Positions 4,917 through 62,316 of a stretch of 62,430 nucleotides of DNA are shown here, piece by piece. Location: assembly GCA_030631415.1 (NCBI GenBank), contig DAOVLE010000001.1, positions 1 to 62,430 of the forward strand, read 5' to 3'. Position 1 is the first letter of the stretch. Each line of letters starts with the position of its first letter. The notes below the pieces were generated by a model. It saw nothing but the letters and a program-made list of their open reading frames with translations. It ran no database searches and was not told where the DNA came from. The position numbers were made by a program, and so were the translations under genes. Source of the stretch: Phycisphaerales bacterium. GTDB taxonomy: Bacteria > Planctomycetota > Phycisphaerae > UBA1845.

Positions 4917-4919
4917 TCG

Positions 4920-14570: not shown

Positions 14571-14582
14571 ACCACAAGCCCC

Positions 14583-15560: not shown

Positions 15561-15603
15561 GTTATCCTGCCATCCGCACCTCTCGGTGCCGGTTAGTCGT
15601 CCT

Positions 15604-32599: not shown

Positions 32600-32886
32600 G
32601 ATGCTGCACGCTCGTGGATCGTATCTTGATCCGGGTTGGAACTCCAGGGCAGCCTAATTGAGCCAAGGGTAGGGATATCCACCCGAAAGCTGCACATCTT
32701 CAACAGCGGCGTGCCGCCCTTGAAAGCAACATGGCTCGCGAGGGCCGGGTTGGCGAATGCGTGACGCAAAACCCGGCGGTCCCGGAAGTTCTTCTCGACA
32801 ACGGCCGGGTTCATCGCGCGCCAAGCCGTAGTGTCGCGGAAGAGACCGCGGCAGTCATTCCTGGAGAGCTTCGGGGCCTTATCCAT
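32569..32886 (-). pseudogene. truncated AbiEii-type nucleotidyltransferase toxin
   Basis: The ATG at 32884-32886 overlaps the stop region of AbiEi. VEKNFRDRRVLRHAF...HVAFKGGTPLLK matches the N-terminal EKDY....L..L...FKGGT.L.K block of AbiEii. The ORF ends after 105 codons instead of about 300. Confidence 0.55.
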
Positions 32887-33496
32887 CGCCGTCCTCTCGA
32901 CATATCTTCCGGATGGCAGCGTACACCCACCCGGTGGCGGTGCTCGTATCGGCAAGAATCTTGCCGCGTAGCTGCGGATCGAGCCACTTGCGGATCCGGG
33001 CGATGCCACGCGGCCTGATTCCGTCGGCCCCAAGGGACTTCAAGGCCTGCACGATCAGAGCACTTTCGTGATACCGGAAACCTGCTTCCTTGAGGGCAGT
33101 GTGCTTGAACGCCAGCGAGGTAGTCCCTATCTCGTAGGACCGGTCGGGGCCGTCGGACAGGAAGACGTACATGGCAGGTACCTGCGTAGATAGGCCCAGG
33201 AGGTTCTGCGCAGCCGGCCCGCTGGGCTGGATGCGCCAGCCGAATTTCCGGGCCAGCGCCCCGGCAACCTGGTCGATGTCCGGGCCCATTTCCGCTTCGA
33301 GCAGGTCGCTGTATGGGGGGTAGTCGTAAATCCCCCGAATGACCCGCCGGATCGTGCCCTTTGCCAGGAGTCGGTGCAGGGCGATGTCGATCGCCCCGCG
33401 GCTGGCGAGGCGGGCGAAGTCCTTCTGGGAGAACACCCAGCCACGCCCTTTGCCGTAGATCTTGCCCAGCAGCTTTTGTTCGGTGCTCTGTGCCAT
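32879..33496 (-). CDS. AbiEi-type (DUF6088-like) type IV antitoxin / transcriptional regulator
   Basis: 205 aa. The sequence QKLLGKIYGKGRGWVFSQKDFARLASRGAIDIALHRLLAKGTIRRVIRGIYDYP is the family's winged-helix N-terminus. Confidence 0.7.
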   Translation of the reverse strand: MAQSTEQKLLGKIYGKGRGWVFSQKDFARLASRGAIDIALHRLLAKGTIRRVIRGIYDYPPYSDLLEAEMGPDIDQVAGALARKFGWRIQPSGPAAQNLLGLSTQVPAMYVFLSDGPDRSYEIGTTSLAFKHTALKEAGFRYHESALIVQALKSLGADGIRPRGIARIRKWLDPQLRGKILADTSTATGWVYAAIRKICREDGDG

Positions 33497-33751
33497 CGCG
33501 AAGCCGTTTCCTTGTAAGAAAATATACCATATTTTTCTTACATGTCAACCGGTGGATGCTAGCCTTTCGCTCGTGCGTGCCCTGGTTATCGGACTGCTTC
33601 CATCGCCTGCGGGCGGGCTCCCCGAGGTCTGAGCTGTTGGCGACAAAGCGAATCGGTGGTGCCGGTGCGTCGAAAACTCCACAGCCGTGAGCTTGGTAAC
33701 CCCTGTTGCGCTATGCAACGTGGAGCTGAGCGGCATCCATAACAGCTTCGA

Positions 33752-36700
33752 ATGACTCGATGGAGGAAGATGAAACGCCATACCAGCGACTTGGCAGATA
33801 GCGGACGCAAGGCGGCCCGTTCAGAAACAGACGGGCGAGATGCGGGCTCCCAATTGCTCTTCGATTTCGGTGCGCTTTCCGCACCGTCCCCAGTTGTGAT
33901 CCCGTCAGGGCGTGAGTGTCCGGAATGGCAATTCGCGCTTCGATTCGCAGCCATCATGGAAGCAGAGCCAGCCTGCACCTTTGACAACGCGGAGGTGTCG
34001 AGCCTGGCCCGCGAGATATTCGGAATGTCTGCCGGACACGCACGCGATGCGTACGACGCGGCTGAAGCCGGATTCAACATCTACATGGAGCGTGTCGGGC
34101 TGGACCTGAGCGATCCGCACGCCGCGATTGAGTGGCTCGTCGCCCAGCAGGCGCGATTGCCGCGGCAAACACGTCGCGATGAGGTTCAAGTTGAGTTCCA
34201 GCAATTCAGCACGCCGCCGGCCCAGGCGCTCGTGCTCGTGAAGGCGGCGGCACTTCGACCCGGAATGAAGGTGCTCGAACCCAGCGCGGGCACGGGCAAC
34301 ATCGCGGCCTTGGCACGACTGGCCGGCGCTGAGGTCGACACGAACGAGATCGATGAGCGTCGGGTGAGCCTACTGTCGCTTCAGGGATTCGAGCCGACGG
34401 CGTTTGACGCCGAACGTCTCGACAATCTTCTTCCGGCGGACAAGCTCTACGACGCCATCGTAATGAACCCGCCGTTCTCGGCGACCGGTGGACGCGTGCG
34501 GGGACATCGCACGGCGTTCGGGGCGCGGCACGTCGAGCAAGCGCTGCTACGCCTCAAGCCCGGTGGACGCTTGGTGGCCATCGTGGGTCGCGGGATGGCG
34601 TTGGAGCGGCCAACGTTTCGCAAATGGTGGGCCGAAATCGAGCAGCGCCACAACGTTCGGGCGAACCTGGGCATCGACGGCTCCGCGTACGCCAGATTCG
34701 GCACGACGTTCGACAACCAGATCATCGTGATTGACCGAGACGGCTCGACCGCGAACGAGTCGGACATCATCAGGGGAAGCGGGCTGTCACTTTACGACGC
34801 ATACGAGTTGATCAAGAATCTTGGACAGGAGGACGTATATGGGCGAATTCGCAGACATGATGAAGCAGCGGGCGGTGGAGGTGCTCCGGCGAACGTACGG
34901 GCAGGAACCATCGACCGGAACGGACCCGGTGGTCGAGTTGATGGGACTGCTACTGGAGGACGGGGCAGGGGGCGTTCGGCGGCTGCCGCAGATACCGCTG
35001 ACGACGGAGCAGTGGATCCTCTGGCACCAGCTCGTGATGGAGCGGCCGGAGGAGCTTGTCCGAATGTTGACGCAAGTGCTCGAACGCGAGCGGATGGAGC
35101 TTCCGCAGGAAGCCGAAGCGATGCGGGTGTGGGCAGCTCAGCTTCTGCTGAGCACGCTGGACGAAATGGGGATGGCATAGGCCAACTCGAAACTGCCGTC
35201 CCGCTGCCGGCGCTACGCATCGAGGACGGCACCGTCTTCGCCGCCTACCGTGTACAGAAGGCGATCGTCCGGGGGTCAGAGCCCCATCCGGCCAACGTGG
35301 TCGAGTCCACGGCCATGGCGTCCGTCGAGCCGCCGGACGTTACCTATCGACACCACCTACCCGCCGAAGTGATCGCCGAAGGCCGCATCTCAGATCTCCA
35401 ACTTGAAGACGTGATCTACTCCGGACAGGCGACCAGCGTGCCGCTGCCCGACGGCTCGCTCAAGGGGCACTGGAATGGCGACGGCACGGGAATTGGGAAG
35501 GGAAGGGAGGTCTACGCATTCATCTACAACGAACTTCAGCAGGGCCGGCGCAAGCACGTGCATGTTTCGGCATCGCACCAACTGCGGGCCGATGCCGAAC
35601 GCGATCGTGACGCCGTTGGGATTCCGCTTCCGATCGTGCACCAAGCCAAGTTCAAGCCAGGCGAAGCGATTCCCGCCGAGGCGGGCGTGCTGTTCACAAC
35701 TTACACGATGCTCAGTACGGATTTCGGAGGTGAGCGCCAGCGATTCAAGCAGTTGACCGACTGGCTCGGAGCCGATTTCGAGGGCGTGATCGCATTCGAC
35801 GAGGCGCACCTGATGAAGAACGCGGCCGCCACGCCGCACGGCGGCAAGGCCACGGTGGACCACGGCACTCTGCGCGGGAACATGGGCATCACGTTGCAAC
35901 GCCTCTTCCCGCAGGCTCGGGTCCGCTACTTCAGCGCGACCGGCGCCACGGAAGCCCGCCACATGGCCCCCTACGAACGGTTGGGGCTCTGGGGTGTCGG
36001 GGCTCCGTTCGCCGACTTCCCGGCCTTCCTGGTGGCGATGGAGCGTGGGGGCGTCGCGGCGATGGAGATGCTCTGCCGCGACCTCAAAAGTGTCGGGACG
36101 TATCTCTCTCGCACGATCAGCTATGGTCCCACGCGCCGCGAGGATGGGAGTGTCGTGCCCGAGAGCGCGGTCGAGTACGAACCGCTTCTGCACAATCTGA
36201 CGGTGGATGAACAGCGACAGTATGACCAGATCGCCGACCTGTGGTCGGAACTTCTGACAGCGTTCGAGTCGGCTGAACAGAACGCCGGCCAGGGACGAAA
36301 CTCTCACCGATACGCCCAGTTCTACTCGGCCCAGCAGCGTTTCTTCTTGCAGTTGATGATGGCCTACACGCTACCCGACGTGATCCCGGCCATCGAGATG
36401 GACCTCCAGCAGGGACGCTCCGTGATCCTGAGTCTCTTCAACACGGGAGAAGCACAGGCGGATCGCAAGGTGCGTGACGCCCGCGCCCAAGGCATCGAGC
36501 TATCCGAACTGGACGCAACCCCGCGCGAAATGATCGTACAGCTCATCGAAAAGCAGTTTCCCATTTTCCAGTACCGCGAAGAAACGGACCCCGTGACCGG
36601 CAACGTAATCAGCGTGCGCGTCGAGGACGCGGCGGGGAACCCGGAGATCAACCGCGAGAACCAGCGGCAGCAGGAGAGGTTGCTCGACAAGGTCGCCGAC

Positions 36701-38344
36701 CTGGACTTTCCGCAGAACTCGATGGATGCTCTGATTACGCATTTCGGCGTCGGCAACGTGGCCGAGATCAGTGGCCGCACGCACCGGTTCGAGAATGGCA
36801 AGTACGTACGGCGCAAGATTCGTGGCGTGTCGCGGCGGCAACTCAACGAGTACGAGACGCGGCTGTTTCAGCGGGGCAGAAGGCGTCTCGCCATCATCTC
36901 CGGCGCGGGCTCAACCGGCATCAGCGTTCATGCCGACGTGGACGCGAAGAACCAGCAGCGCCGCGCTTTCTACGCGTTCCAGCTCTCATGGTCGGCTGAC
37001 CAACAGATGCAGGCCTTTGGCCGTGTGCATCGGTCGAATCAGACTTCAGCGCCGGTCATTCGTTTGGTATTGCTCGACCTGGCCGGTCAGAAGCGGCTCG
37101 TGAATGCCGTCTCCAAGCGACTCGCCGCACTGGGCGCGCTGACCAAGGGCGAACGACATTCGCTTTCGAGCGAACTCTTCAGGCCGGAGGACGTAACCGA
37201 CCCATTCGGCAAGGCTGCGCTGGCCCGGCTGTACCGGCAGATCGAATCCGGCCGGCACGCGGATGCAGGGTTTGGCCTGCGCGACCTGGATCGAATGGGC
37301 GTGCTGAACAAGGAGAAGACTGCGGTCCGGGACAGCTACGCGAGCAACGTCGAGCAGTTTCTCAACCGCATCATGGTGTTGCACGTCGAGAAGCAGAACC
37401 GCATCTTCGACCTTTTCTACGAGCGTTACCAGGAGGCGGTGGAGGCGGCCAAGCGACAGGGGGCTTTCGACTTCGGAATGGAGGAGATTCGCGCCCGCAA
37501 CCTGCGGAGAACCGCCGAGGCGGAAACGCTGTTCGTGGACCCGGCATCCGGCGCCCGCACGATGTTGCATGAACTGGAAGGCGAGGTCGATGTCGTTCGA
37601 CACACCTTCGCTACGGCGGCGAGCACGGGCGATGAGGGCTTCCATCGCAACAAGCGCAGCCGGCGAGTATACGCCGTATCGAAACACTGGGACGCCTATC
37701 GGTCCGAGGTGTTCCTCACGGCGGTCAAAGGCCCGCGACGAGCATTGGAACATCGTGAATTGGAGGACAAGTACGAACGAGTGGAGCAGGCGGAAGCTCG
37801 TGAGTGGTGGGAGGCGGAGTACGCGAACACACCGGCGACCGAGCCGCGTCGGTTCTACATCCTCAGCGGCGCGATATTCCCCATCTACGACAAGGTCATG
37901 GGCTCGTCGGGCATTCAGACCGTCAAGATCGCGCGGGCCATCCTCGCCGATGGCCAAGCCCTGGTCGGTCTCAACCTGAGCGCATCCGACGTACCGAACG
38001 TCAAGCAGCGGCTCGGCATCGGCACACCGCTGGGCGAAGCCTCGCCGACGGAGATCGTCGGCCTGCTGATCGGCGGCGCCGTAATCGAGTTGGACAACGG
38101 CTGGCAGCTCACTTCGGCCCGCATCGCGGGCGACGAGGTGGTAGAGTTGGTACTCAACGGGGTCCCTGGTAATCGTGAAGAACTGCGACGCTATGGCTTG
38201 TCGGAAGAGATCATCTACTACAAACGGCGCTGGTTCGTCCTGTTGGATGAAGCGGCGACCACCTTGCCGAACCTTCTTGCGCAGCGGAAACCGATCAGGG
38301 ATTTGACGGCCGCGGATACACCGATCCTGGTCGAACAGAATTGA
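33752..38344 (+). CDS. N6-adenine methyltransferase fused to an SNF2/strawberry-notch-like helicase (DarB-like anti-restriction type)
   Basis: 1530 aa. MTase motif I is VLEPSAGTGNIA and motif IV is VMNPPFS. Helicase DEAH box is IAFDEAHLMKNA and motif VI is AFGRVHRSNQ. Residues ~360-475 are a G/A/R/D-rich stretch that is out of frame with an embedded ORF. Confidence 0.85.
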   Translation: MTRWRKMKRHTSDLADSGRKAARSETDGRDAGSQLLFDFGALSAPSPVVIPSGRECPEWQFALRFAAIMEAEPACTFDNAEVSSLAREIFGMSAGHARDAYDAAEAGFNIYMERVGLDLSDPHAAIEWLVAQQARLPRQTRRDEVQVEFQQFSTPPAQALVLVKAAALRPGMKVLEPSAGTGNIAALARLAGAEVDTNEIDERRVSLLSLQGFEPTAFDAERLDNLLPADKLYDAIVMNPPFSATGGRVRGHRTAFGARHVEQALLRLKPGGRLVAIVGRGMALERPTFRKWWAEIEQRHNVRANLGIDGSAYARFGTTFDNQIIVIDRDGSTANESDIIRGSGLSLYDAYELIKNLGQEDVYGRIRRHDEAAGGGGAPANVRAGTIDRNGPGGRVDGTATGGRGRGRSAAAADTADDGAVDPLAPARDGAAGGACPNVDASARTRADGASAGSRSDAGVGSSASAEHAGRNGDGIGQLETAVPLPALRIEDGTVFAAYRVQKAIVRGSEPHPANVVESTAMASVEPPDVTYRHHLPAEVIAEGRISDLQLEDVIYSGQATSVPLPDGSLKGHWNGDGTGIGKGREVYAFIYNELQQGRRKHVHVSASHQLRADAERDRDAVGIPLPIVHQAKFKPGEAIPAEAGVLFTTYTMLSTDFGGERQRFKQLTDWLGADFEGVIAFDEAHLMKNAAATPHGGKATVDHGTLRGNMGITLQRLFPQARVRYFSATGATEARHMAPYERLGLWGVGAPFADFPAFLVAMERGGVAAMEMLCRDLKSVGTYLSRTISYGPTRREDGSVVPESAVEYEPLLHNLTVDEQRQYDQIADLWSELLTAFESAEQNAGQGRNSHRYAQFYSAQQRFFLQLMMAYTLPDVIPAIEMDLQQGRSVILSLFNTGEAQADRKVRDARAQGIELSELDATPREMIVQLIEKQFPIFQYREETDPVTGNVISVRVEDAAGNPEINRENQRQQERLLDKVADLDFPQNSMDALITHFGVGNVAEISGRTHRFENGKYVRRKIRGVSRRQLNEYETRLFQRGRRRLAIISGAGSTGISVHADVDAKNQQRRAFYAFQLSWSADQQMQAFGRVHRSNQTSAPVIRLVLLDLAGQKRLVNAVSKRLAALGALTKGERHSLSSELFRPEDVTDPFGKAALARLYRQIESGRHADAGFGLRDLDRMGVLNKEKTAVRDSYASNVEQFLNRIMVLHVEKQNRIFDLFYERYQEAVEAAKRQGAFDFGMEEIRARNLRRTAEAETLFVDPASGARTMLHELEGEVDVVRHTFATAASTGDEGFHRNKRSRRVYAVSKHWDAYRSEVFLTAVKGPRRALEHRELEDKYERVEQAEAREWWEAEYANTPATEPRRFYILSGAIFPIYDKVMGSSGIQTVKIARAILADGQALVGLNLSASDVPNVKQRLGIGTPLGEASPTEIVGLLIGGAVIELDNGWQLTSARIAGDEVVELVLNGVPGNREELRRYGLSEEIIYYKRRWFVLLDEAATTLPNLLAQRKPIRDLTAADTPILVEQN
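34839..35180 (+). CDS. embedded out-of-frame 113-aa ORF inside the methyltransferase-helicase linker
   Basis: AGGAGG at 34827-34832, a 6-nt spacer, then ATG at 34839. The alternate-frame stop at 34809-34811 lies just upstream. Third-codon positions are overwhelmingly G/C in this frame, whereas the host frame has A/T-rich third positions across the same 342 nt. The product is helical and protein-like (MGEFADMMKQRAVEVLRRTYGQ...). Confidence 0.5.
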   Translation: MGEFADMMKQRAVEVLRRTYGQEPSTGTDPVVELMGLLLEDGAGGVRRLPQIPLTTEQWILWHQLVMERPEELVRMLTQVLERERMELPQEAEAMRVWAAQLLLSTLDEMGMA

Positions 38345-39318
38345 GAACAGGGCGCAGGCTGCATGGAACGGCTCAGCCGGGCTCGCCAAACAGGTTGTCG
38401 CGTGCCGGCGTTGGGGGCGGCGGCCAATAAGAATAAGGGTAACTACCACCGTCTCGGCCAAGCCGCAAGATCCGTAAGCTATTGCCTGAAAGCTGGTTAT
38501 GTGCCTTGGGCGGACCGCGATGTCCAGCCGACCAGGCTGGACTTCCCCCGCGACTACTCAAACGGGCGGCATTCGCACTGCCTTTGGCCTCCGCAGGAGT
38601 AGCTCAACGTGAGCTTTGCCACGAGTGGCACCGTCGACGCTCGCATGCCAGCGCCGTCGCGTTTCCCGCGCACGTACGCTGTTGCCGGGTCGGCGGCTCG
38701 CCAGCTACCCGCTCATTGACACGGTCACGCGAGACTGTCCGCCTGCCAGCCGACTCCGTGGAGGGCGGCCCCGCGAGAATGTAATGATCCTGTTCGTACG
38801 GCGGTCTGTCGGGAATCGGATTCTTTGGGCTTGTTCGGCATCGATTCGATTTTCGCGAATTACCCATGCCAGTACAACCACAATCGGGGCCGGGAATGAT
38901 CGAGCGCCGCACCTGACCACAAGCATGCTGTCTCGAATCACCCTCATGGTCGACAACGCCGCAGCGTATTGCGACCTAGTAACCAACTTTCTTGGACCCA
39001 CCACGAATGCCCCAGCCGACAGCTGCGACTAGGTGGGAATGCGTACAAATGCGGCGGACCACTCATCTGTCGGCTGAGCGAGATCGCGGGAATTCGGTGA
39101 GTATCCCTGCCGCCGGACCGTCGTCGACTTGCTGCCCGTGACCAAGACACGTGTCACGCCGCGGTCAGCTTCGCAGAGCAGGTCAATAGTGCGTAGCCTG
39201 CCGTACCGAGGATCGCACCTTGCACCGCCCACTTGCTCCGCGATAATGGCACGTACGGGCTGAGCGGGGCGCCGCCGGTAAGTGCCCCCGGCCACAACCT
39301 GTACGGGAGTGCTGGCGA

Positions 39319-41307
39319 ATGTCCTCATCGAGCCGCTCGTTCACCTGGCTTCATCTGTCCGACCTTCACTTGGCCGATAATGACTACGACCAAGACATCG
39401 TCACTCGAGCACTGCTCCGGGATCTCCCGGCCTTGTTGGCCCGTGACAATCTGCGACCTGACTGCGTGTTCTTCACAGGCGACATAACCAGGCACGGAAG
39501 TGACACTGAATTCGCAAAGGCCGCTAAGTTTTTCAAAGCTCTCAAGAACTGTGTGCATCCCACACTAAACTCCGCAGGTCTGCTGGTCGTACCCGGCAAT
39601 CACGACGTGCACTGGCCATTAGTTAGCATTACCGCCAACACCGTGGATATCTCGGCCTTTCACACTGAGGGCGCAATTCATGACGTCTTCCATCAACCTG
39701 AACGCACTGTCTATCTTCAGGGTCTGCAGAACTACTTCGCATTCAGCAGGCAGAATATCGTCAAGGGCAGTATGGCGACGATGGATCAGCTCGATAGCTG
39801 GTTCTGGAGTCGCCTTTTGCGTTCGTCGGCTGGCCTTCGCATCGGCCTGATCGGCCTAACAACGTCCTGGCGATGTTGTGAGGCACTGCGCGGCAGCGAA
39901 CCTGGACATCTCCTTCTCGGCGTCTTTGGCTTGCGGCAGACACTGGAGTCCTGGAAGGCGCTTGCCCCTGACAAGCAGCCAGACCTCATCATCGTCCTTG
40001 GACACCATCCCGTTTCCTGGCTTAGCGAGGTAGAGCAAAGTCCCACTTCGAATCTGATTTCCAAAAACGTCGACATATTTCTCCGGGGGCATGAACACCG
40101 GGCGCAGTGTACATATCAGCAGTCGATTGCCGGTGCCCATCTTGAATATGCGGCAGGCGCCATATTCACGGACGAGGACAGTGTACGGCGCACTGGCCTA
40201 CGTTTTGCCGCGGGCGTTGTCCGGCCGGACGAGAGTGCCGGCACCATTTACTCTTACAAGTACAAGGAAGAGGGAGGTAATGAAAAGTGGCTTCCTGACC
40301 ATGAGTTTGCCGAATCCTCCACTCACACTTATCCGTTTTCGATTAGACCGGACACAAACCGGTCGGACTGCGTTGCCACTTCGCATCGCCCGGTTGGAGT
40401 AAACGATGACAATGCACGACCCCGATACCGCCTGCGCGCCGTCACGGCCGTCGGCTTGCTCTGTGCGCTTGCCATCGCAACTGCTCTCATCATCGTTTTT
40501 GCTCAAGGACAAGACAGGATATCCATCGCGCTCACCGATACCCCACGACACCTTGGAGACAACGTATTCGCCTCGATTGGCGTCATGGAACCATCGCCGG
40601 TGCGGGCACCGTCGGGTGACGAACACAATGGGCTGATTTGGCTCGACAAGGGGCTGGGGGAGATCACACTCACATCATTACCGACCCTGGTCATACCATT
40701 CATACGCGAGTTGCAGGCATTATATTCACAGTATGACCTCAGCACCTACCAACATGTGCGTCTTGTGCAGACATCGGATCTGGCGGCCATGCCACCGAAG
40801 AAGCGTGGTCCACCGTATGCTGAACCCTTCGGCGCAAGTTGGCTAGTATGGGATACGGGCGCGGGCAATTTCCACTTACAGCGTGCTGCCGTAGCGTTGT
40901 GCCACGTATGGGACATGAAGTCTGAATTGGAAGCGCGCAACATTCAATATGACACGGTCGAATTGGTCGATGCCAACTTGGTGATCCGCATCAGTCACGG
41001 CGGACACCCACAGGGGGACGGCGGGAGCATCTTGCTTCGACTGAATGATGCCACGCATGACATTGCTGAACTGCTAGTCCACGAAACGGGACAGCATCCG
41101 GAGGTACTGAAAATCAGTGTTAAGAACGACCTGAATATGACGGGAGATTCGTTCAATGTGCTAGGACTAGCTACAACGCCGATACAGGAGAGGACGCCCA
41201 TTCCGTGGGAGCCCTCCGGCAGGTCGTCACCTGGTCCCGCACATTTTCGTGATATTACCGTCTACTCAGTTGCTCTTCAGTTATCACTTAAGCATGAAAA
41301 GCGGTAG
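39319..41307 (+). CDS. membrane-anchored calcineurin-like metallophosphoesterase with unknown extracytoplasmic C-terminal domain
   Basis: All five MPE motifs are present: LHLSDLHL, FFTGDITRHG, VVPGNHD, VLGHHP, LRGHEH. They are followed by one TM helix (AVTAVGLLCALAIATALIIVFA) and about 265 aa I do not recognise. Confidence 0.75.
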   Translation: MSSSSRSFTWLHLSDLHLADNDYDQDIVTRALLRDLPALLARDNLRPDCVFFTGDITRHGSDTEFAKAAKFFKALKNCVHPTLNSAGLLVVPGNHDVHWPLVSITANTVDISAFHTEGAIHDVFHQPERTVYLQGLQNYFAFSRQNIVKGSMATMDQLDSWFWSRLLRSSAGLRIGLIGLTTSWRCCEALRGSEPGHLLLGVFGLRQTLESWKALAPDKQPDLIIVLGHHPVSWLSEVEQSPTSNLISKNVDIFLRGHEHRAQCTYQQSIAGAHLEYAAGAIFTDEDSVRRTGLRFAAGVVRPDESAGTIYSYKYKEEGGNEKWLPDHEFAESSTHTYPFSIRPDTNRSDCVATSHRPVGVNDDNARPRYRLRAVTAVGLLCALAIATALIIVFAQGQDRISIALTDTPRHLGDNVFASIGVMEPSPVRAPSGDEHNGLIWLDKGLGEITLTSLPTLVIPFIRELQALYSQYDLSTYQHVRLVQTSDLAAMPPKKRGPPYAEPFGASWLVWDTGAGNFHLQRAAVALCHVWDMKSELEARNIQYDTVELVDANLVIRISHGGHPQGDGGSILLRLNDATHDIAELLVHETGQHPEVLKISVKNDLNMTGDSFNVLGLATTPIQERTPIPWEPSGRSSPGPAHFRDITVYSVALQLSLKHEKR

Positions 41308-41412
41308 GTGAGCGCGAGCCTGCTCATGGATAACCGCCGGCTCGCCTAGAAACGTCACCCGCGCTATGGTTTACACACGAACTGCCGTGCGTGTGGCGAA
41401 TGAGGAGAAGCG

Positions 41413-44400
41413 ATGCGACAGCGCTTATGGAACGAGCTGAGAGCCGCTCGGTACGAGGAGGCCGTAGCAGAGTTGACTGCGCTCCACGAGTCGGGGGAGG
41501 ACTTCGACGCCCATCTTGTTCTCGCAGCAGTTAGGCTGCAGCATGAGGCGGCTCAGCCAATCCCAGACACTTGGGCCAGCGAGTGGCAAGCGAACGGTCT
41601 GACAGAACTTGTTACGATTGCAGCGCACCTGTTCAAGGGTCAATGGCGGAGTGCTGTCGATGAGTACCAGAAGCGCAAGGATGCCTTTCGACAAACCAAA
41701 GACGACGGCGGATCAGCCGCGCTTGCAGCGTGGTGTGCGACCCGAGCCGCCTTGGAACTCGGGGACAGCACACTAGCCGCTGGCATTGCGTCTGAGGCAC
41801 TTGACTGCGGTTATCGCAGTCCTGTTCTCTTGGTGGAGGCGCTGCGCGTTCAGTTGGAACATGCCTTTCTTCCCTGCCCAGATACACTTGTTGTCGACTT
41901 GAGCCTCTGGGTTGATGATGGTCACACGTCGTTCATGTCTCCCGCCTGGGCGGCTATTGCCGAGGGCCTGTCAGCATGGCTCAATCATCGTGATGGTGCG
42001 AGCACACAGGTTCAACAGTATTTGAACAAGGCGGGCACAGATCTCCAGCCATATCCATTCGATCTGGCTGAGCTTCTTCCCTTTTTTGAACGGATTCAAC
42101 ACCCTGTGGCCCAGGCATATGCTGCGTCCATCTTACCGCGGTCGCGCGGTAGTTATTACACGTGCCGTTATGTGTTTCATGGCGACCCAGCATTCTCTGA
42201 GGCCAACGGCCTTCTTGACCAACTGCTGAGTGACAACCCATCTTCTCCGGGCTTGCATTTGTGCAAGGCGCAATTGGCCCTAAAACACAAGCAGTACAGC
42301 CAGGCCCTCGCGTCAGCTCTGTCTGTTCGAGAGATTGACGCGACCAACATAAAGGCGGTGCGCATAGCCTTTCAGGGGGCCACGCGTTCCGGCAACCTGC
42401 CACAGGCGATTGAGCTCGCAAAAGACCTCGTGCTGCTTTCGAGCGACCACGCAGCGGCCTACGAGTTTGCATATAGGGAATTTACCGCAATCGGGCGCCA
42501 AGAGGATATTGTTTCGATCGCCGAGTTCTGGTGCGGACAAGAGTGGGACACAAAGGAGAATGCGCGGCTCCCTTTAGATGTGTCCGCCGTTAAGCAGTTT
42601 CATCAGAGAGGGCGACATGACGCACTCGTTGAGTTGCTGAACCGGCGAGCTGAACAGCTCGGTGAGGAGCAGCTGGCGTCCTTGCTCGCACGCGAAGAGG
42701 TCCGGAATGTTCTTGCGGAGCTAGGCACGCTGCAGGGTTTGAACGTGGCTGCACGCTTCGCGTGCGCCAGAGCAAGCGAGAGCATAAAGGACATTGAGGC
42801 CGCGTCGGAGACTCTGGCGGCAATGGCGCTTGATGAGACCATCTCTGCTGAAGAGAGAACGGGAGCGAAGTGGCGGAACAAAATAGTCCAGGCGCACGCT
42901 TCCTTGCTTAGAAACATGGACGATGCAGAGTGTCTTCGAGACTTCTTGGGCGTCTGTGCACAGGCCGACGCCGCGTTGGCCATTCCGGCCGTCCGAGCGC
43001 TGCTCGATCGCCTTGGACAGGAGGGGCGCCTGCTGGACGCCAGGGGAGTCATAGAGACACTTGTGTCCAAGGCCGACTCTGAGACAATCCTCACATTCTG
43101 TGCGGAATGGCTTGACACCAAACTGCATGATGCCGCGGCGGGTCTTGAGTGTCTAAGGCCCCACCTGGATGCCATAAGTGAGTCCACAACGTGGCGGTGT
43201 CGGTGCCGTCTACTGAGCAAGTGTGGGGACTCGGAGGCGTGGATAGCCGCGGCGAGTGAAGGGCAGGGGCGGTTTCCTGACACAAAAGCCCTGTTCGTAA
43301 TAGAAGAGGGCTTAGCAAAGGCAGCCATCGAGCCAGCCACGGCTATAGATCTGCTGCACAGTGGACTTCTCTCGGAGCCTACCGATAACCGAGGCTTGAA
43401 CGGGTTTCTCCCACTTGCGAAGCGATTTGACAGGCACCATGAGGCAATTGAGGTGTTGCAGAAAACAATTGCCAAGGTACCGACATCAACCGGCTGCCGC
43501 GCTTGGTTGGCAGCGCTGCTCGATGCGTCAGGCAGTGATGAGCGCGCGCTTCTTGAGCACTTGTATTATCTGGTTCATCGCGACACCGGGTATGGCAAGA
43601 AGGAGCGAGACACCAGTCGCAAGCACATGCCGCGCGTTCGTGAGCGACTTCTAACGGCTCGGCAAGCGGAAGATGAGTATCTAGACAGTTTCGCGAAGGC
43701 GCACCGGCAGCGGGTGTCTGCGGCCATTCGATCGGTACCGCTCCTTGCGGACAACGTCGTAGCCGCAGTGTTTGCCCAACTCGAGACGGACGATAGCGCA
43801 GATAACAACAGTGAAGAGCAGTCCAAGGAAGACACGCATACTGCAACTCAGTTAGGCCTTATATTGGTGGTAGATAGCCACCATCTTGCAAAACCCGAAC
43901 AAACGCGCTTGGCCAGCGTGGCCACGGAGGCACTAACAGTTCGGGGATATTCCGAACTCGTTAGGATTCACGCGAGCGCCGAAATATGGCACGAACTGCG
44001 ACGATCCACGCGCGGCCTGCTGGAAGGCATACTGGCGGGAGTGCCTGCTCTTGACAGCTCTTTTCTCGAGTGCCTTCGCGCAGTGGATTCACATCGTGAG
44101 ATGGTCCTCGAGAAATTCAAGGAGTACGTGGCGTGCTACGTCGTCGCTGGTTCTTTTGTGCGCGGCACTGCCCGACCGTCGTCCGACATGGACGTGTGGA
44201 TTGTAATCAACGACACGGATGTCAAGCGCATGAGCCGACAGGACTTGTTCAAGAAGATTAAGACAATTGTTGACGAGCAGGCTGTGGAGGCGAGACAGCG
44301 TTGGGCCAGCAATCGGCAGATACATGTGCAGACATACCTGTTATCTGACTTCTGGGATAAATTGCGTGAATCGTCACCCATTCTGACGTCCTTTTTGCGC

Positions 44401-45105
44401 GACGGCGTGCCATTGTACGATAATGGCTTTTTCAATACGTGGACCGTTCTGCTAGACGAGGGGAAGCTGCAGGCCACGAGGGAAGCTTTAGATAGACAAA
44501 TAAGGACACTGCGCGACGTACGAGAGCGTGGCCGCAAGGCGATTAACGACGTTTTGGGAGGGCTCGTGAATACAATCAAGCGCACGGCCATTGGACCGCT
44601 GGAAGTCGTTCTCGAAGCAATGGGTCTTCCGACGGGTGACTACCGTCAAGTTGTTGAGATAACAAAGCGAGAGCTCGTCGCTGAGCGGGAGCTGTTTAGC
44701 CCTGATGACTTGGTAATCGCCGAGCAAGCCGTAGACATGTGCAAGGCATACGAAGCCGGGAGATTACCCGATGCCGAGAAGGTGTGTGCCTTATTTAGAC
44801 AAACAGAGGAACTTTCGGACAAGTGTCAACGCGTGTATCAGAAGGTTCTTTTCGAAAGGGACCTAGATCTTGTTCGGTCATGGGCCGAGCGCATTCGGCA
44901 GAGCGTCCAGGGCGAGGACGCTGTCTCTGAGCATGGTGTTCCACCGGATGAGAGCACGATGCTCAAAAGATTCGTGGAGAGGGTTGACGATGTAGTAGCA
45001 CACGTGGACGACCCATTGTCGCCGCTGCGCACGGCGATTCTGGCGGCAGAAGTTGCTAGCATCAAACGATGGGAATGGTTGTTAGAAGAAAGGGCGGCCA
45101 GGTGA
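41413..45105 (+). CDS. large alpha-helical (TPR-like) repeat protein with a Pol-beta-superfamily nucleotidyltransferase domain
   Basis: 1230 aa. About 850 aa are helical-repeat sequence. This is followed by VVAGSFVRGTARPSSDMDVWIVIND, the G[SG]-x9-13-DxD minimal NTase signature (nt ~44150-44210), and a helical C-terminal region. GAGGAG lies before the ATG. Confidence 0.7.
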   Translation: MRQRLWNELRAARYEEAVAELTALHESGEDFDAHLVLAAVRLQHEAAQPIPDTWASEWQANGLTELVTIAAHLFKGQWRSAVDEYQKRKDAFRQTKDDGGSAALAAWCATRAALELGDSTLAAGIASEALDCGYRSPVLLVEALRVQLEHAFLPCPDTLVVDLSLWVDDGHTSFMSPAWAAIAEGLSAWLNHRDGASTQVQQYLNKAGTDLQPYPFDLAELLPFFERIQHPVAQAYAASILPRSRGSYYTCRYVFHGDPAFSEANGLLDQLLSDNPSSPGLHLCKAQLALKHKQYSQALASALSVREIDATNIKAVRIAFQGATRSGNLPQAIELAKDLVLLSSDHAAAYEFAYREFTAIGRQEDIVSIAEFWCGQEWDTKENARLPLDVSAVKQFHQRGRHDALVELLNRRAEQLGEEQLASLLAREEVRNVLAELGTLQGLNVAARFACARASESIKDIEAASETLAAMALDETISAEERTGAKWRNKIVQAHASLLRNMDDAECLRDFLGVCAQADAALAIPAVRALLDRLGQEGRLLDARGVIETLVSKADSETILTFCAEWLDTKLHDAAAGLECLRPHLDAISESTTWRCRCRLLSKCGDSEAWIAAASEGQGRFPDTKALFVIEEGLAKAAIEPATAIDLLHSGLLSEPTDNRGLNGFLPLAKRFDRHHEAIEVLQKTIAKVPTSTGCRAWLAALLDASGSDERALLEHLYYLVHRDTGYGKKERDTSRKHMPRVRERLLTARQAEDEYLDSFAKAHRQRVSAAIRSVPLLADNVVAAVFAQLETDDSADNNSEEQSKEDTHTATQLGLILVVDSHHLAKPEQTRLASVATEALTVRGYSELVRIHASAEIWHELRRSTRGLLEGILAGVPALDSSFLECLRAVDSHREMVLEKFKEYVACYVVAGSFVRGTARPSSDMDVWIVINDTDVKRMSRQDLFKKIKTIVDEQAVEARQRWASNRQIHVQTYLLSDFWDKLRESSPILTSFLRDGVPLYDNGFFNTWTVLLDEGKLQATREALDRQIRTLRDVRERGRKAINDVLGGLVNTIKRTAIGPLEVVLEAMGLPTGDYRQVVEITKRELVAERELFSPDDLVIAEQAVDMCKAYEAGRLPDAEKVCALFRQTEELSDKCQRVYQKVLFERDLDLVRSWAERIRQSVQGEDAVSEHGVPPDESTMLKRFVERVDDVVAHVDDPLSPLRTAILAAEVASIKRWEWLLEERAAR

Positions 45106-45154
45106 CAAGAACGAGCAGGGGTCTGAAAGAGGTGGTGAGGTGGAGAGCTGAGAG

Positions 45155-46012
45155 ATGCTGAGATTACTCGTCGTTGGTGATCTTCACGCCAATTTGTCTG
45201 CAATCCAGCAGATTGTCCGCGCGGCTGCAACAGCTCCGTCAGACATGACGCCTGACGCGGTAATCCTCACTGGTGATTTTGCAGCGCATGACGCGCGCCT
45301 GCCAGCCGCTGTGGCAAGCCGGATTCAACGTGGTGTTGTTCGTGCAACAGAATCGCTCTGGTGTGGGCTGCAGGTGCCTATACTATGTGTTCCGGGGAAC
45401 CATGACAGACCGGACTTGTGGGGTGTGGGCGGATGCTTGCAGAGCATCGACACGCTTGGAGGCAGGCAGCCGGCAATGGTAAAAGGATACCGAGTTATTG
45501 GGGTGGGTGGGAGTTGGCGATTCGGAGGTTTGCCGTACGAATGGGAAGACTCCGAAGGTTTTGAGAAAGCGCTGGAGGATAGGTGGCCGGCCTCGGATGA
45601 CGTCCCGGAAGTGTTGCTTTTCCATGCACCGCCGGCAGAGGCAGGTGTAGATAGGGTGGTGTCCGGTGAGTGCGTCGGGAGCAGGGCGTTACGAAACATC
45701 GCGCTTCGAAGAAGGCCAAGGTTGGTTATATGTGGCCACATACACGAGGGAATTGGCCCTGGCGTTCTCGGTGGCGAGATTCCAGTGTTTAATGCGGGGC
45801 TAGCAGGTGTGCCTCTCATTCCGCCGTTTATGTTGCGCCAGAGGAACACTGAGAAGCCTCGACGGTTGCGCGTTCCCGGGTCGTTCTTCAGCATGCATAT
45901 GATTGAGGAAAGCGAGTCGCAGTACGACGTGGTGGCCATGTGTAATCTCGGCAGAGGATGGATTCGACAACACCTCGTGTTCGAATCGAGGCGTGGATGG
46001 CGAGTCGAATAA
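45155..46012 (+). CDS. stand-alone calcineurin-like metallophosphoesterase
   Basis: 285 aa with motifs VVGDLHAN, ILTGDFAAHD, CVPGNHD, LLFHAPP and VICGHIHEG. Confidence 0.8.
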   Translation: MLRLLVVGDLHANLSAIQQIVRAAATAPSDMTPDAVILTGDFAAHDARLPAAVASRIQRGVVRATESLWCGLQVPILCVPGNHDRPDLWGVGGCLQSIDTLGGRQPAMVKGYRVIGVGGSWRFGGLPYEWEDSEGFEKALEDRWPASDDVPEVLLFHAPPAEAGVDRVVSGECVGSRALRNIALRRRPRLVICGHIHEGIGPGVLGGEIPVFNAGLAGVPLIPPFMLRQRNTEKPRRLRVPGSFFSMHMIEESESQYDVVAMCNLGRGWIRQHLVFESRRGWRVE

Positions 46013-46473
46013 CGACCTATTAAGAGACGTGTGATTGAAGAGGGGCCCCTTTTCCCGCGGTGGATCACTGGCGCAGGCCTGGTAGGTGCCACTCACGCCG
46101 GGCGGGCGGAGCGCAGCTCGTCCGGCTCCCCAGCGATTCGATCGCCGAAGCCGTCCAGCCGGGAGGCGCCTCTACATCACGGGGCTTGGGCGCCTCCTGA
46201 CAAGCCGATGTGCTTCCGCTCGCGTGATATCGTGGCGGGTACGAACGAGCAGCCGGACAGTGTTCGGAACCCTGAACACCCTGGTGACTGCACCGTGAAT
46301 GTGCCGCGTCGCAGTCTGGTTCGGCGAAGTGGTAGGACTACCACCTAAAGTGGTAATACCACCTCTAAACGCGTCAAAACGCGACAGAATGCGAAGGATT
46401 GCGAAAACCGAGAATCACGGTAAGATACTGGAAACACAGGCTTTGAGAGCCAAATCGGCCAGGGCAGGTCCTA

Positions 46474-46517
46474 GCTTCCCAAGCTGGACGTCGTCGGTTC
46501 GAATCCGATCGCCCGCT
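46474..46517 (+). repeat. att repeat 1: 3' portion of tRNA-Gly(CCC) (anticodon loop to acceptor end)
   Basis: GCTTCCCAAGCTGGACGTCGTCGGTTCGAATCCGATCGCCCGCT contains an anticodon loop TTCCCAA, a T-arm GTCGG-TTCGAAT-CCGAT and an acceptor 3' strand CGCCCGC plus U73. It closely parallels E. coli glyU. No matching 5' half (GCGGGCG...) lies upstream. It is identical to 58125-58168 and 62273-62316. Confidence 0.85.
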
Positions 46518-46639
46518 ATAAACGCTGTAACCACAGATGGTTACAGCTCGTCGCTCCTCGTCCTGGCGTGGACGGAACCGAGGAAAATCGGTCTCTTTTC
46601 GTCGCTGTAAGTCCTTTTGCGGCGCTATTCGTCCCTCCG

Positions 46640-46662
46640 AACCGCCAGTAAACCGCCAGTAG
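46640..46662 (+). promoter_or_regulatory. tandem AACCGCCAGTA x2 (candidate integrase arm-type site, left arm)
   Basis: AACCGCCAGTAAACCGCCAGTAG lies 123 bp right of att repeat 1. The same 23-mer occurs at 58046-58068, 57 bp left of att repeat 2. Confidence 0.5.
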
Positions 46663-46758
46663 ATCGGGCCTTGGGGGACGGTCTCGTTGGAACCAGGCGG
46701 CGCGGAAGGGTGGGCGACAGCGAATTCCAGATCAGGTTGGGGGCTTGGAATCGGCTGG

Positions 46759-46974
46759 CTACCTTGTCGGCCCGGATAGCTTCTCGTACCGATCAAGAAC
46801 ACTTAACTCCTGGACCCACATGTTGTAGTCGTGGTAGGCCCCCGCGAACATGAGTACGATCCCACCGGCAATCACGACCGGCAAGTGGACCACGCTCTGG
46901 TCTTCAAGTATCGAGTTGGCGATGATGGCTGCTGCGAGCATGGCTACGCCTGAACTTGTAAGGAAACAGACCAT
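46759..46974 (-). CDS. small hydrophobic protein
   Basis: 71 aa with two predicted TM helices. Confidence 0.35.
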   Translation of the reverse strand: MVCFLTSSGVAMLAAAIIANSILEDQSVVHLPVVIAGGIVLMFAGAYHDYNMWVQELSVLDRYEKLSGPTR

Positions 46975-46980
46975 CGCTCC

Positions 46981-47382
46981 TCACTCGCTTAGTGCTCTAC
47001 CGATGCTCCTATGCGGCTCCTTGTCTGTTCCCAGTCTGCACCATCGTTCGTAATCGAGCCAGCGGCTGAGTTCGCGGTTGCAGGTATCTTCTTCGGCGAA
47101 TTCTCCAACATATGACTTGTGTTTCGCTCGCGCTATCCGCAGGACAACCGGTCCAACCCAGGAGAGGATACATGCCTTGCAGAAAGTGTACGATACCATG
47201 CCGAATATCGCGCCGGCCACTAGAAATGTCCACCATCCTTGAGATTGCAGTGAGTGGCTCTTGGAGGCGAACATGAAGGCAAGATACCCTACGTATCCAG
47301 GGGCAACATAGCGAAGCAAAGTCCTGGTATTCTCAACAAGCGCATTTAACGCCGAAGCCGTGCTCTCAACTGGATTGCTCAT
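46981..47382 (-). CDS. hypothetical membrane protein
   Basis: The internal start MSNPVESTASAL follows GGAGAG. This choice avoids overlap with the integrase gene. Two hydrophobic helices. Confidence 0.45.
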   Translation of the reverse strand: MSNPVESTASALNALVENTRTLLRYVAPGYVGYLAFMFASKSHSLQSQGWWTFLVAGAIFGMVSYTFCKACILSWVGPVVLRIARAKHKSYVGEFAEEDTCNRELSRWLDYERWCRLGTDKEPHRSIGRALSE

Positions 47383-47452: not shown

Positions 47453-48634
47453 TCATACCACGTGAAGCCTCTCGATTCCAGCGGGAATCGGGTCGGGAAG
47501 GACCAGCCCGAAGTCGATCTTGCCCGCCTCGTCAACCAGCCGGGCATCGTCATTCTGGGCATAGTAGGTCTCCAGGATCAGCTTGAAGTCGCCATGCCCA
47601 AACATCTTGATCATCACCTGCCACGGCATCCCCTGCTGAGCCACCGTTGACGCCCAATACTTCCGCAAGCTGTGCGGGACGAAGTGCTTCTCGAACCTAA
47701 GCTGATCGCAAATCTGACGGAATCGCTTCTCGACGTTGTGGGCGTGGACCTGCGTACCGCGCATCGTTTCGAACACCCATAGGTCGCGGCGGTTCGTCCG
47801 GCGTAGCCGTTTCGGGATCGTCGCCAACTCGGGAACCATGGCGATGCGACGGACGCCGTGTTTGGTCTTGGGCTGCCAGAAAATGCCGTTCTTCATCCCC
47901 GGACGAATCAGGATCACGTTGTTCTCGAAATCCACGTCGTCCCAGGTGAGGTGGACCGCTTCACCGATCCGCATACCAGTCAAGCACAACGCCGTGAACA
48001 GATCAGTGTAGTCGTTGGCGTTGATGCCCTTGAAAATCCGACGACCATCATGCCGTCGTTCGCCGGTGGGGACAGCCTCGATCCGTGCATTTTTGATGAT
48101 CAGGCGGACTTCTTCGGCAGTGGGTACGGCGCTGCCCGTGACTCCGTTGCCGTTGGTGTCGTCGGGCGTCGGGATGTGAACGCCATTCAGTTTGGGCACG
48201 TCAGCGATGAGCGTCCGTTCGTGTGCGTACTCCAGAACGCCGAGGATGAAGTTGAGCTGCCGACTGGCTGATGATGGCTGTATTCGGCTCAGCTCTTCTT
48301 CCGCGAAACCTCTGAGCATGGCTGCATCAACCTGATCGACACCGAGCGTCCCATACGCTCGCCCGACGAATCGTGCGAACGAGGCGATTGCACCGGTGAG
48401 CTTCAGCATGCTCGACTTCCGTAGTTTCTTGCATTCATGGCCTTCACGGCGAGCTGTCACATAATCCCCGGCAACCGTGGAGAAGAGGACGCGGACGTTG
48501 GCGGCATGGACTGGGAAACCGTTTCTGATTGCAGCTTGCTGGTATGCAAACTGCTCGGCGCGGGATCGATTGAGTTCCTTCGTGGGCACCGTTGCCCACT
48601 TGTCCCCACGGCTATCGCAAGGACCGCCCGACAC
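47453..48634 (-). CDS. int: tyrosine integrase of the 46.5-58.2 kb island
   Basis: Box I is LTGMRIGEAVHLTWDDVD, H-x-x-R is FVPHSLRKYWAST, and the catalytic Tyr context is GHGDFKLILETYY. It lies about 0.9 kb from att repeat 1. Confidence 0.85.
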   Translation of the reverse strand: MSGGPCDSRGDKWATVPTKELNRSRAEQFAYQQAAIRNGFPVHAANVRVLFSTVAGDYVTARREGHECKKLRKSSMLKLTGAIASFARFVGRAYGTLGVDQVDAAMLRGFAEEELSRIQPSSASRQLNFILGVLEYAHERTLIADVPKLNGVHIPTPDDTNGNGVTGSAVPTAEEVRLIIKNARIEAVPTGERRHDGRRIFKGINANDYTDLFTALCLTGMRIGEAVHLTWDDVDFENNVILIRPGMKNGIFWQPKTKHGVRRIAMVPELATIPKRLRRTNRRDLWVFETMRGTQVHAHNVEKRFRQICDQLRFEKHFVPHSLRKYWASTVAQQGMPWQVMIKMFGHGDFKLILETYYAQNDDARLVDEAGKIDFGLVLPDPIPAGIERLHVV

Positions 48635-58124: not shown

Positions 58125-58168
58125 GCTTCCCAAGCTGGACGTCGTCGGTTCGAATCCGATCGCCCGCT
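58125..58168 (+). repeat. att repeat 2: tRNA-Gly(CCC) 3' fragment
   Basis: 44/44 identical to 46474-46517. No 5' tRNA half lies upstream. Confidence 0.85.
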
Positions 58169-62272: not shown

Positions 62273-62316
62273 GCTTCCCAAGCTGGACGTCGTCGGTTCG
62301 AATCCGATCGCCCGCT
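62273..62316 (+). repeat. att repeat 3: tRNA-Gly(CCC) 3' fragment
   Basis: 44/44 identical to the other two copies. It is preceded by ACAGTCCAGAAC x2 (about 62177-62209) and followed by the palindrome GTGGTAATTACCAC (62394-62407). Confidence 0.85.

Follow-up and report, generated by a model that had tools for sequence, protein, structure and literature searches.

The stretch of DNA analysed here, referred to below as the window, comprises 62,430 nt of contig DAOVLE010000001.1 from a Phycisphaerales bacterium, and all positions given for it are numbered within the window. Its subject is a cluster of three genes (the trio; positions 39319-46012) carried by a mobile element. A preliminary description, made from the letters of the sequence before any database search, had presented the cluster as three co-oriented genes encoding a membrane-anchored phosphoesterase, a large helical-repeat nucleotidyltransferase (NTase) and a soluble phosphoesterase. 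Open reading frame (ORF) calls placed three intact, co-oriented genes at these positions, all on the plus strand. The gaps between them were short, as described, although they measured 105 and 49 nt and not 106 and 50 nt.

Conservation of the trio as a mobile unit

In a database of 5.8 billion proteins, a single close relative of gene 2 was found (61% identical), encoded by a metagenome-assembled genome from Phycisphaerae. The contig in question (L001) carries the same three genes in the same order, with 61-67% amino acid identity. In a six-frame comparison of the window with this locus, similarity was confined to positions 39305-46032 and to one backbone methylase elsewhere. The shared span starts 14 nt before gene 1 and ends 20 nt after gene 3. 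The trio is flanked by AbiE and ParA in the Phycisphaerae element and by a Strawberry-notch-type (Sno-like) helicase and an att repeat in the window. Because similarity is limited to the trio, the three genes occupy different places in related conjugative elements.

More distant versions keep the gene order of the window, with gaps of 2-35 nt (L008, L012-L015). The protein at the gene 1 position of L008 has 667 aa and an N-terminal SIR2_2 domain; the accompanying gene 2 product is 30% identical to that of the window over 1204 aa, and the gene 3 product 47%. In L012-L015 the gene-1-position protein is only 374-397 aa long and starts with three transmembrane (TM) helices and nothing else, next to gene 2 and gene 3 products with 27 and 38% identity; the L015 contig ends ahead of the gene 3 position. 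Every gene-1-type protein that was found was encoded directly upstream of a window-type gene 2, 16-110 nt away from it; this holds for three lineages that are about 30% identical. The preliminary description had listed a lack of synteny in other genomes among the findings that would refute it, and the trio was syntenic in the Phycisphaerae contig, L008 and L012. We conclude that the trio is a genuine, conserved and co-transferred mobile unit.

The composition of the trio sets it apart from its surroundings. Its G+C content was 0.562 versus 0.614 in the element core, and G+C at third codon positions (GC3) was 0.57-0.61 in its genes versus 0.72-0.85 in those of the relaxase, coupling protein, HsdR and Sno-like helicase. 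The lower G+C content read earlier from the letters was thus borne out, and the trio is compositionally foreign to its conjugative element. GC skew reached its maximum for the window at positions 44001-46000, with +0.15 and +0.22 in consecutive 1-kb windows covering the end of gene 2 and gene 3.

The sole conserved non-coding stretch upstream of the trio in the two elements is a promoter-like TTGCA(C/G)-16-GA(T/C)AAT. The Phycisphaerae copy (TTGCAG-16-GACAAT; L001 ~3040-3070) keeps the hexamers and their spacing in otherwise unalignable DNA. A scan for consensus promoters and terminators gave counts at background level, and the candidate upstream of gene 1 was absent from its output; we list it tentatively as a possible promoter (Table 1). 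No conserved repeats were detected in the non-coding flanks at the cassette ends.

Window-type proteins are extremely rare. In an exhaustive HMMER search of 1.84 billion representatives, full-length homologues of gene 2 formed three 50% clusters only, and just two further proteins resembled it over the full length (P0135 and P0136, from the L008 and L012-L015 loci); each window-type protein stands alone or nearly alone in its cluster, and all come from metagenomes. A metagenome scan with the profile of the gene 1 outer domain recovered only the known Phycisphaerae contig, and a scan of GTDB species genomes with the NTase-module profile, in which DPANN-archaeal short forms crowded out the rest, produced no new bacterial trios. 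IMG/VR viral contigs contained no relatives of either the outer domain or the NTase module; the plasmid and phage collections contained none of gene 2, and the plasmid collection none of the outer domain. Nor did any plasmid match positions 33000-47000 of the window at the DNA level.

Table 1. Coordinates of the trio, its predicted domains and other features of the window
Feature	Position	Strand	Remarks
Gene 1	39319-41307	+	662 aa; ORF and translation
Gene 1, cytoplasmic head, aa ~8-342	39340-40344	+	Calcineurin-like metallophosphatase
Gene 1, TM helix, aa 377-395	40447-40503	+	19-residue window, mean hydropathy 2.74
Gene 1, C-terminal outer domain, aa 396-662	40504-41304	+	267 aa; predicted extracytoplasmic
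Gene 2	41413-45105	+	1230 aa; ORF
Gene 2, N-terminal helical/TPR-like array, aa 1 to ~740	41413-43632	+
Gene 2, degenerate first NTase-like alpha/beta domain, aa ~782-877	43756-44043	+	Lacks GS and DxD
Gene 2, intact Pol-beta-type NTase, aa ~883-1003	44059-44421	+	G913-S914, D925, D927
Gene 2, C-terminal helical domain, aa ~1006-1230	44428-45102	+	Position of the KNTase C-terminal domain
Gene 3	45155-46012	+	285 aa; ORF
Possible promoter	39220-39247	+	TTGCAC, 16-nt spacer, GATAAT; ~70 nt upstream of gene 1
att repeat, first copy	46474-46517	+	44-nt tRNA-Gly(CCC) 3' fragment, reading from the anticodon arm to the tRNA 3' end
att repeat, second copy	58125-58168	+	Identical
att repeat, third copy	62273-62316	+	Identical
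Hachiman	1359-5795		HamA and helicase
Type I restriction-modification (R-M)	5744-13833
RhuM-family gene	10661-11767		E 5e-116
IetAS-like module	13866-15641		Adjoining IetS truncated
IetA	14583-15641		E 2e-148
Type IV coupling protein	24698-26659
TrwC relaxase	26656-29337
DNA methylase	29895-31094
AbiEi neighbour	31694-32599		301 aa
AbiEi	32879-33496		E 2e-59
Methylase/Strawberry-notch-type helicase (Sno-like)	33752-38344		1530 aa
Tyrosine integrase	47453-48634	-
Unannotated ORF	58523-60235	-	570 aa

Architecture and partners of the three proteins

The complete cytoplasmic phosphoesterase, single TM helix and outer domain (~265 aa by the first estimate) that the preliminary description had given to gene 1 were all recovered. 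The head matched Pfam Metallophos at residues 11-261 (E 7e-14), and all five metallophosphoesterase motifs are kept (DLH15-17, GD54-55, GNHD93-96, GHHP ~228-231 and GHEH257-260). Residues 12-342 aligned with positions 1-310 of the NCBIfam model DS8_antiphage (NF053861) with an E-value of 1.5e-28. Matches to two PADLOC models were also observed, PDC-S60 (E 8e-27, covering only positions 4-249 of 1027) and PDLC00736, which is labelled 'Effector/Endonuclease' (E 3e-25). Other relatives of the head are fused to NACHT/STAND, TIR, TPR and kinase modules. These motifs and relatives suggest that gene 1 encodes a membrane effector with a DS-8-type head, likely active as an enzyme.

The TM helix and the outer domain of about 267 aa are common to all gene-1-position proteins. 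The ortholog in the Phycisphaerae trio (P0004) is 62% identical; the C-termini of the L008 and L012 proteins are 28-31% identical to the outer part of gene 1 (E 3e-33 and 8e-28), and their N-termini are unrelated. The L008 head resembles SIR2 domains associated with pAgo (E 1e-10). In all four homologues compared, the N-terminal flank of the TM helix holds more lysine and arginine (4-5 vs 0-3) and has a higher net charge than the C-terminal flank. From these flanking charges an N-in/C-out topology is predicted, which would put the outer domain outside the cytoplasm in every version. The outer-domain profile gave no match in Pfam or among PDB sequences, and gene 1 beyond its phosphatase domain had no sequence match to any PDB chain; by these searches the outer domain is a new domain that belongs to no known family. 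What stays constant across the versions is gene 2, gene 3 and, within gene 1, the TM helix with the outer domain, and what varies is the cytoplasmic head. The swapping of enzymatic heads on a constant chassis is a pattern seen in known defence effectors.

Gene 2 has no hydrophobic segment and is predicted to be cytoplasmic. A TPR_19 match at residues 261-310 and a HemY-like TPR match at 264-428 were detected in its N-terminal array, and Pfam NTP_transf_2 (residues 894-955, E 8e-7) and Polbeta (E 3e-4) in its C-terminal part. Both the TPR-like repeats and the NTase read from the letters thus stood. The NTase is not minimal, however: it forms part of a tandem pseudo-NTase/NTase with a helical tail, an arrangement common to a family of DPANN archaea. 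In an AlphaFold2 (AF2) model of residues 740-1230 (mean pLDDT 87), the order helix-strand-strand-helix-strand was observed twice, followed by long helices (~220 aa). phmmer likewise matches the NTase region twice in short-form relatives, the additional, N-terminal match being the weaker. Alignment of the degenerate domain revealed 'LPP' or other residues in place of GS and DxD. The motif of the second NTase, GSFVRGTARPSSDMDVWIV, begins at residue 913; across an alignment of 20 family members, the G of its GS motif and the SDxD never vary and the S hardly does, which suggests an active enzyme. The N-terminal ~740 residues are kept only among window-type proteins, other TPR-NTases matching from about residue 750 on.

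Structure prediction followed by Foldseek, proposed at the outset for both large proteins, worked for this module; the outer domain of gene 1, modelled with AF2 from two sequences, gave a pLDDT of 33 and an unusable model. The best PDB matches of the gene 2 module were weak and of the KNTase type, comprising KNTase/ANT(4'), AAD(9), GlnE, MntA and HalB (E 2e-4 to 1e-2). Alignments spanned 274-293 columns for KNTase/ANT, longer than a minimal NTase domain, and 117-162 for MNT proteins, and the GlnE structure 1v4a was matched with E 9e-4 over 419 columns. Against a viral structure library only generic NTases were returned, and a PDB sequence search with the C-terminal module of gene 2 gave chance-level matches only.

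The NTase module was found in about 295 representative clusters, most of which consist of proteins of ~600 aa from DPANN archaea (Woese-, Pace- and Nanoarchaeota). At least 573 loci were counted in GTDB species genomes, and the best 80 are all labelled archaeal except two. These archaeal proteins share the pseudo-NTase, NTase and helical domain of gene 2 at 22-39% identity (E down to 1e-50) and differ from it in having no TPR array. Their helical domain keeps the sequence RKDIEH (Rx4H, HEPN-like), where gene 2 has CKAYEA. Among their neighbours, a CBS/zinc-ribbon protein was present in 25 of 80 loci and ribosomal protein clusters in 15-16 of 80, and tblastn located a gene-3-like or gene-1-like gene in 0 of 83 short-form loci. 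The archaeal family looks like an uncharacterised housekeeping one, from which gene 2 apparently derived its catalytic module.

Gene 3 encodes a second, soluble phosphoesterase, as had been supposed. Pfam Metallophos was matched at residues 2-198 (E 4e-19), and all metal-ligand motifs are present and invariant in seven orthologues. Its nearest solved relatives by phmmer are MPPED2 (5e-6) and Rv0805/Icc (4e-5), both cyclic-nucleotide phosphodiesterases, which the protein resembles; scores against the NCBIfam equivalogs YaeI and SpdA were far under the cut-offs, and PADLOC PDC-S10 was matched at positions 97-189 of 223 only. We therefore describe gene 3 as a putative cyclic-nucleotide-phosphodiesterase-like enzyme.

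A gene-3-like enzyme accompanies TPR-NTases in at least six lineages (L001-L008, L012-L014, L016, L103/L104, L107/L108 and the P0139 contig), and lies at most four genes away in eight of nine informative long-form contexts. Genes 2 and 3 form a specific pair, gene 3 alone being the constant partner of the NTase. The preliminary description had cast both phosphoesterases as breakers of what the NTase makes; this part of it fell, since the gene 1 head is swapped for SIR2 or for nothing.

Three architectures of the pair were distinguished. Architecture A (the window, L001-L008 and L012-L015) has the gene-1-type membrane protein as partner. In architecture B (L016, positions 1320-11148 of that contig, and the P0139 contig) the pair stands with three unknown proteins of ~300, ~300 and ~700 aa, joined in the P0139 contig by a Trypco1 protein. 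L016 also has a 299-aa protein homologous (E 9e-26) to a 228-aa protein encoded upstream of the TPR-NTase in L017/L018. Architecture C (L103/L104, L103 8109-17049; L107/L108, L107 6762-15156) comprises a 758-818-aa protein with a 5'-nucleotidase C-terminal domain and TPRs, and small membrane-anchored proteins. L103_202, L107_178 and L107_199 have one N-terminal TM helix each, and the 5'-nucleotidase-like L107_818 is N-terminally anchored. The gene 3 homologues of L103 and L107 carry tryptophan in place of the motif-III histidine (GNWD).

The wholly different partners of the pair in L016, P0139, L103 and L107, together with the lack of an evident cytoplasmic interface between genes 1 and 2, would suit two independent modules that travel together, gene 1 being a self-contained transmembrane sensor-effector of DSR/Rip1-like logic and genes 2 and 3 a separate system. 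We find this improbable: every gene-1-type protein was found directly upstream of a window-type gene 2, in the same order in three lineages, and the N-terminal 740 residues of gene 2 are conserved solely within the set that gene 1 accompanies.

A candidate immune system and its alternatives

We propose that the trio is a new candidate for a mobile immune (conflict) system, whose modular membrane effector would be gated by an NTase/phosphodiesterase pair, and we put the chances of this proposal at about even. A conflict role is suggested because the effector heads are swapped, because the heads belong to known types of defence effector and because of the defence-gene context. The defence-rich setting noted at the outset was recovered in the window as four modules (Hachiman, type I R-M, IetA with a truncated IetS, and AbiEi). 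Near relatives have comparable neighbours: in L012 a DpdB-like gene with a methylase and an NsnB/AriA-like ATPase, in L107 Wadjet-like genes and in L103 an integrase (both adjoining architecture C), and in L001 AbiE. Genes 2 and 3 are read as a make-and-erase pair because of their specific linkage, their intact catalytic motifs and the nucleotide-phosphodiesterase relatives of gene 3. The 5'-nucleotidase C-terminal domain in architecture C was counted in favour of a nucleotide.

We infer the defence role, the product of the NTase, who senses what and the direction of control as follows. Gene 1 would be the effector, a toxic cytoplasmic head tethered by one TM helix to a periplasm-facing domain. 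Gene 2 would act as cytoplasmic sensor or regulator, its TPR-like array binding a partner or trigger and its NTase making a phosphodiester-linked product, which could be a nucleotide or oligonucleotide signal or a nucleoside monophosphate (NMP) adduct. Gene 3 would be the eraser that removes this product, so that the balance of making and erasing would gate the effector. In its likeliest form, by analogy with Hailong and Clover, a toxic effector would be restrained until infection upsets the balance; restraint is favoured because the Pol-beta NTases of both systems restrain toxic effectors. As to the receiver of the product, three readings come into question: the TPR array may contact the juxtamembrane/TM region of gene 1; gene 2 or gene 3 may itself be the target of the product or mark, as in the NMPylation alternative below; or the outer domain may be the true sensor, with the gene 2/3 pair setting only a threshold.

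Several observations weigh against this proposal. The Foldseek matches to known NTases were weak, with low TM-scores for the multi-domain model, and the closest relatives of the NTase module are housekeeping-like archaeal genes. One long-form TPR-NTase (L105), the sole exception to the linkage with gene 3, stands alone amid metabolic genes, and the neighbourhood of the L008 trio is not visibly defensive. Because the trio is so rare, enrichment in defence islands cannot be shown statistically. The L012 version of gene 1 has almost no cytoplasmic portion, and the only part common to the three versions is the last TM helix with the domain predicted to lie outside. With conservation limited to the membrane and what lies beyond it, the three versions offer no evident shared receiver in the cytoplasm for an NTase product. 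A simple model with a cytoplasmic signal that binds the effector leaves this extracytoplasmic conserved part unexplained.

A bolder reading, which we think unlikely, would place the trio in an immune-system class of its own, with two linked controls. The periplasm-facing domain would detect phage attack or envelope damage from outside the cytoplasm, and a mark made by the TPR-NTase and erased by its dedicated phosphodiesterase would license or restrain the effector across the membrane. The TPR-NTase would have been recruited from the archaeal housekeeping family, and the mark would be a previously unknown nucleotide-derived molecule or an NMP. Zorya and Kiwa are examples of envelope sensing, Hailong and Clover of nucleotide gating, and this version would combine both.

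The position of the conserved domain could also point to an envelope-directed function of the mobile element in place of immunity through cell suicide, such as entry or surface exclusion, remodelling of the envelope or signalling of envelope stress. The outer domain would then do the work, and the gene 2/3 pair would have an envelope precursor or a signalling nucleotide as its substrate. Membrane-anchored proteins also occur in other TPR-NTase/gene-3 architectures (those listed above for architecture C), and the cassette is carried on conjugative elements. Set against this, the swap between a cytoplasmic metallophosphatase and a SIR2 NADase-type head is typical of abortive-infection effectors and has no obvious meaning in envelope chemistry, and the gene 1 head is homologous to a validated anti-phage effector domain (DS-8). 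Overall we rate an envelope function as unlikely.

A further alternative puts a switch by protein NMPylation in place of a diffusible signal. It has been reported that HalB, which is among the Foldseek matches of gene 2, primes synthesis on its own tyrosine (PMC13434031). The structural neighbours KNTase/ANT, AadA, GlnE and MntA NMPylate hydroxyl groups, and the tandem of NTase-like domains recalls two-domain GlnE, the protein of the 1v4a match. Gene 2 might in the same way adenylylate a hydroxyl on itself, on gene 3, on the juxtamembrane part of gene 1 or on an invader protein held by the TPR array, and gene 3 would remove the NMP; the trio would still be a defence or addiction module. Such a protein switch would fit the absence of a cytoplasmic ligand-binding domain common to the three gene-1 versions. 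The NCBIfam MntA model is matched with E 5e-5, but at 23 bits far under its cut-off of 60. Gene 3 resembles nucleotide phosphodiesterases and not known de-AMPylases, and the heads, which would be the obvious targets, are mutually unrelated or absent. We consider NMPylation of a protein doubtful, on a par with the two linked controls.

The proposed gating of a membrane effector by genes 2 and 3 was compared with known systems. As the preliminary description had anticipated, no named system was recognised: searches of PADLOC, NCBIfam and Pfam with hidden Markov models gave domain-level matches only, and full-text literature searches found no description of this gene combination. The parts and the general logic are of known kinds; the combination and one domain are new. 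With CBASS, Pycsar and Thoeris-type systems the trio shares a layout, a nucleotide-handling enzyme beside an effector whose toxic domain is swapped (here phosphoesterase, SIR2 or TM-only). It differs from them in that gene 2 is not a CD-NTase/SMODS protein, cyclase or TIR protein and the effector's conserved module is predicted to lie outside the cytoplasm. CBASS was rejected as an identity: among PADLOC models with E <= 0.1, gene 2 hit no CBASS cyclase but just the MNT-like PDC-S09 and PDC-M05A; the Pfam matches are NTP_transf_2/Polbeta and not SMODS; and the structural neighbours are KNTase, MNT and GlnE. No SAVED, STING, SLOG or cNMP-binding receiver domain was found, gene 1 showing just Metallophos.

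Hailong likewise encodes a Pol-beta-superfamily NTase beside a membrane effector, and the product of its NTase HalB restrains the effector until phage enzymes remove it (PMC13434031). The gene 2 model matched the HalB structures 9dbh and 9dbj weakly (Foldseek E ~1e-2, 11-15% identity). Hailong differs in having two genes, and HalB is a tetrameric protein of ~220 aa without TPR array or pseudo-NTase domain. The trio, unlike Hailong, encodes its own phosphodiesterase. HalA is a multi-TM channel with a cytoplasmic DNA-binding crown, whereas gene 1 combines one TM helix with an enzymatic head and an outer domain. We rejected a HalA identity for gene 1 on its single TM helix, the three-gene unit and a TM/C-terminal profile that matches no PDB sequence. 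In Clover, an accessory Pol-beta NTase (CloB) makes an inhibitory nucleotide that restrains a toxic effector (PMC12265719). The NTases belong to one superfamily; the effector CloA is a soluble HD dNTPase, and the system is without a membrane component, TPR array or dedicated phosphodiesterase.

It has been shown that the catalytic residues of the metallophosphatases of DS-8 and DS-9 are required for phage defence (PMC13092281). The gene 1 head is homologous to the N-terminal metallophosphatase of DS-8 (the NF053861 alignment above), and its likeness to DS-9A was also significant (E 9e-13). Membership was rejected for both. Against DS-8, gene 1 scored 99 bits with a cut-off of 790 and had no NACHT or STAND match; against DS-9 (NF053862) it scored 47.9 bits with a cut-off of 420, over residues 6-99 only, and genes 2 and 3 have no HAD domain. 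The trio differs from both systems in lacking a NACHT or HAD partner and in having its metallophosphatase tethered to the membrane beside an NTase.

KNTase/ANT, MntA and GlnE share with gene 2 an NTase core followed by a helical domain, and GlnE also the tandem arrangement. Identity was 10-15% across both domains and up to 19% in MNT-only alignments, and gene 2 differs from them by its ~740-aa TPR array and its length of ~1230 aa. Type VII toxin-antitoxin systems of the MNT-HEPN kind were rejected: the NCBIfam model MntA_antitoxin gave gene 2 only 23.3 bits, no HEPN match was obtained in any of the three proteins, and the Rx4H position of gene 2 reads CKAYEA. AbiE was also rejected, as gene 2 has no AbiEii (PF08843) match in Pfam or PADLOC and the AbiEi of the window belongs to a separate module. 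PDC-S60 and PDC-S10 were not accepted for genes 1 and 3, respectively, both matches being partial-length.

If the trio defends, it would be a system with a new combination of parts, namely a giant TPR-fused tandem NTase, a dedicated phosphodiesterase and an effector whose sole conserved module faces the periplasm. Tests could then address the product of the NTase, the way in which two cytoplasmic enzymes that make and erase it control a protein with its constant part outside the cell, and the target that DS-8-type metallophosphatase effectors destroy. The trio would also show that bacterial conflict systems have taken up an NTase module widespread in DPANN archaea, and offer a handle on the function of the archaeal family. 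Extreme rarity and restriction to uncultured lineages limit the immediate practical impact.

The mobile element and its other cargo

The region to the left of the trio is a conjugative or mobilisable element, with genes for a TrwC relaxase and a type IV coupling protein (Table 1). The tRNA-Gly att repeat reported after the trio is present, and the trio does lie directly ahead of it; it proved to be a 44-nt tRNA fragment and not a tRNA gene. Identical copies of this fragment occur three times on the same strand, with 0 expected by chance. The three copies therefore delimit at least three islands in tandem at one tRNA site, and the trio is the last cargo of the first island, ahead of the repeat that closes its element. 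ARAGORN and Rfam detected no intact tRNA and no other RNA element in the window; the intact tRNA must lie outside it. A tyrosine integrase is encoded after the first copy. The unannotated ORF after the second copy is probably integrase-like.

Among the other defence modules, the IetAS module is probably decayed or rearranged. Its IetA is full-length, and the neighbouring IetS is a 234-aa fragment that matches just two stretches of the IetS models (855 and 656 positions). The neighbour of AbiEi had no AbiEii match in Pfam or PADLOC, and could be a divergent or replaced toxin partner. Within the type I R-M operon, a RhuM-family gene is situated between the S and M genes.

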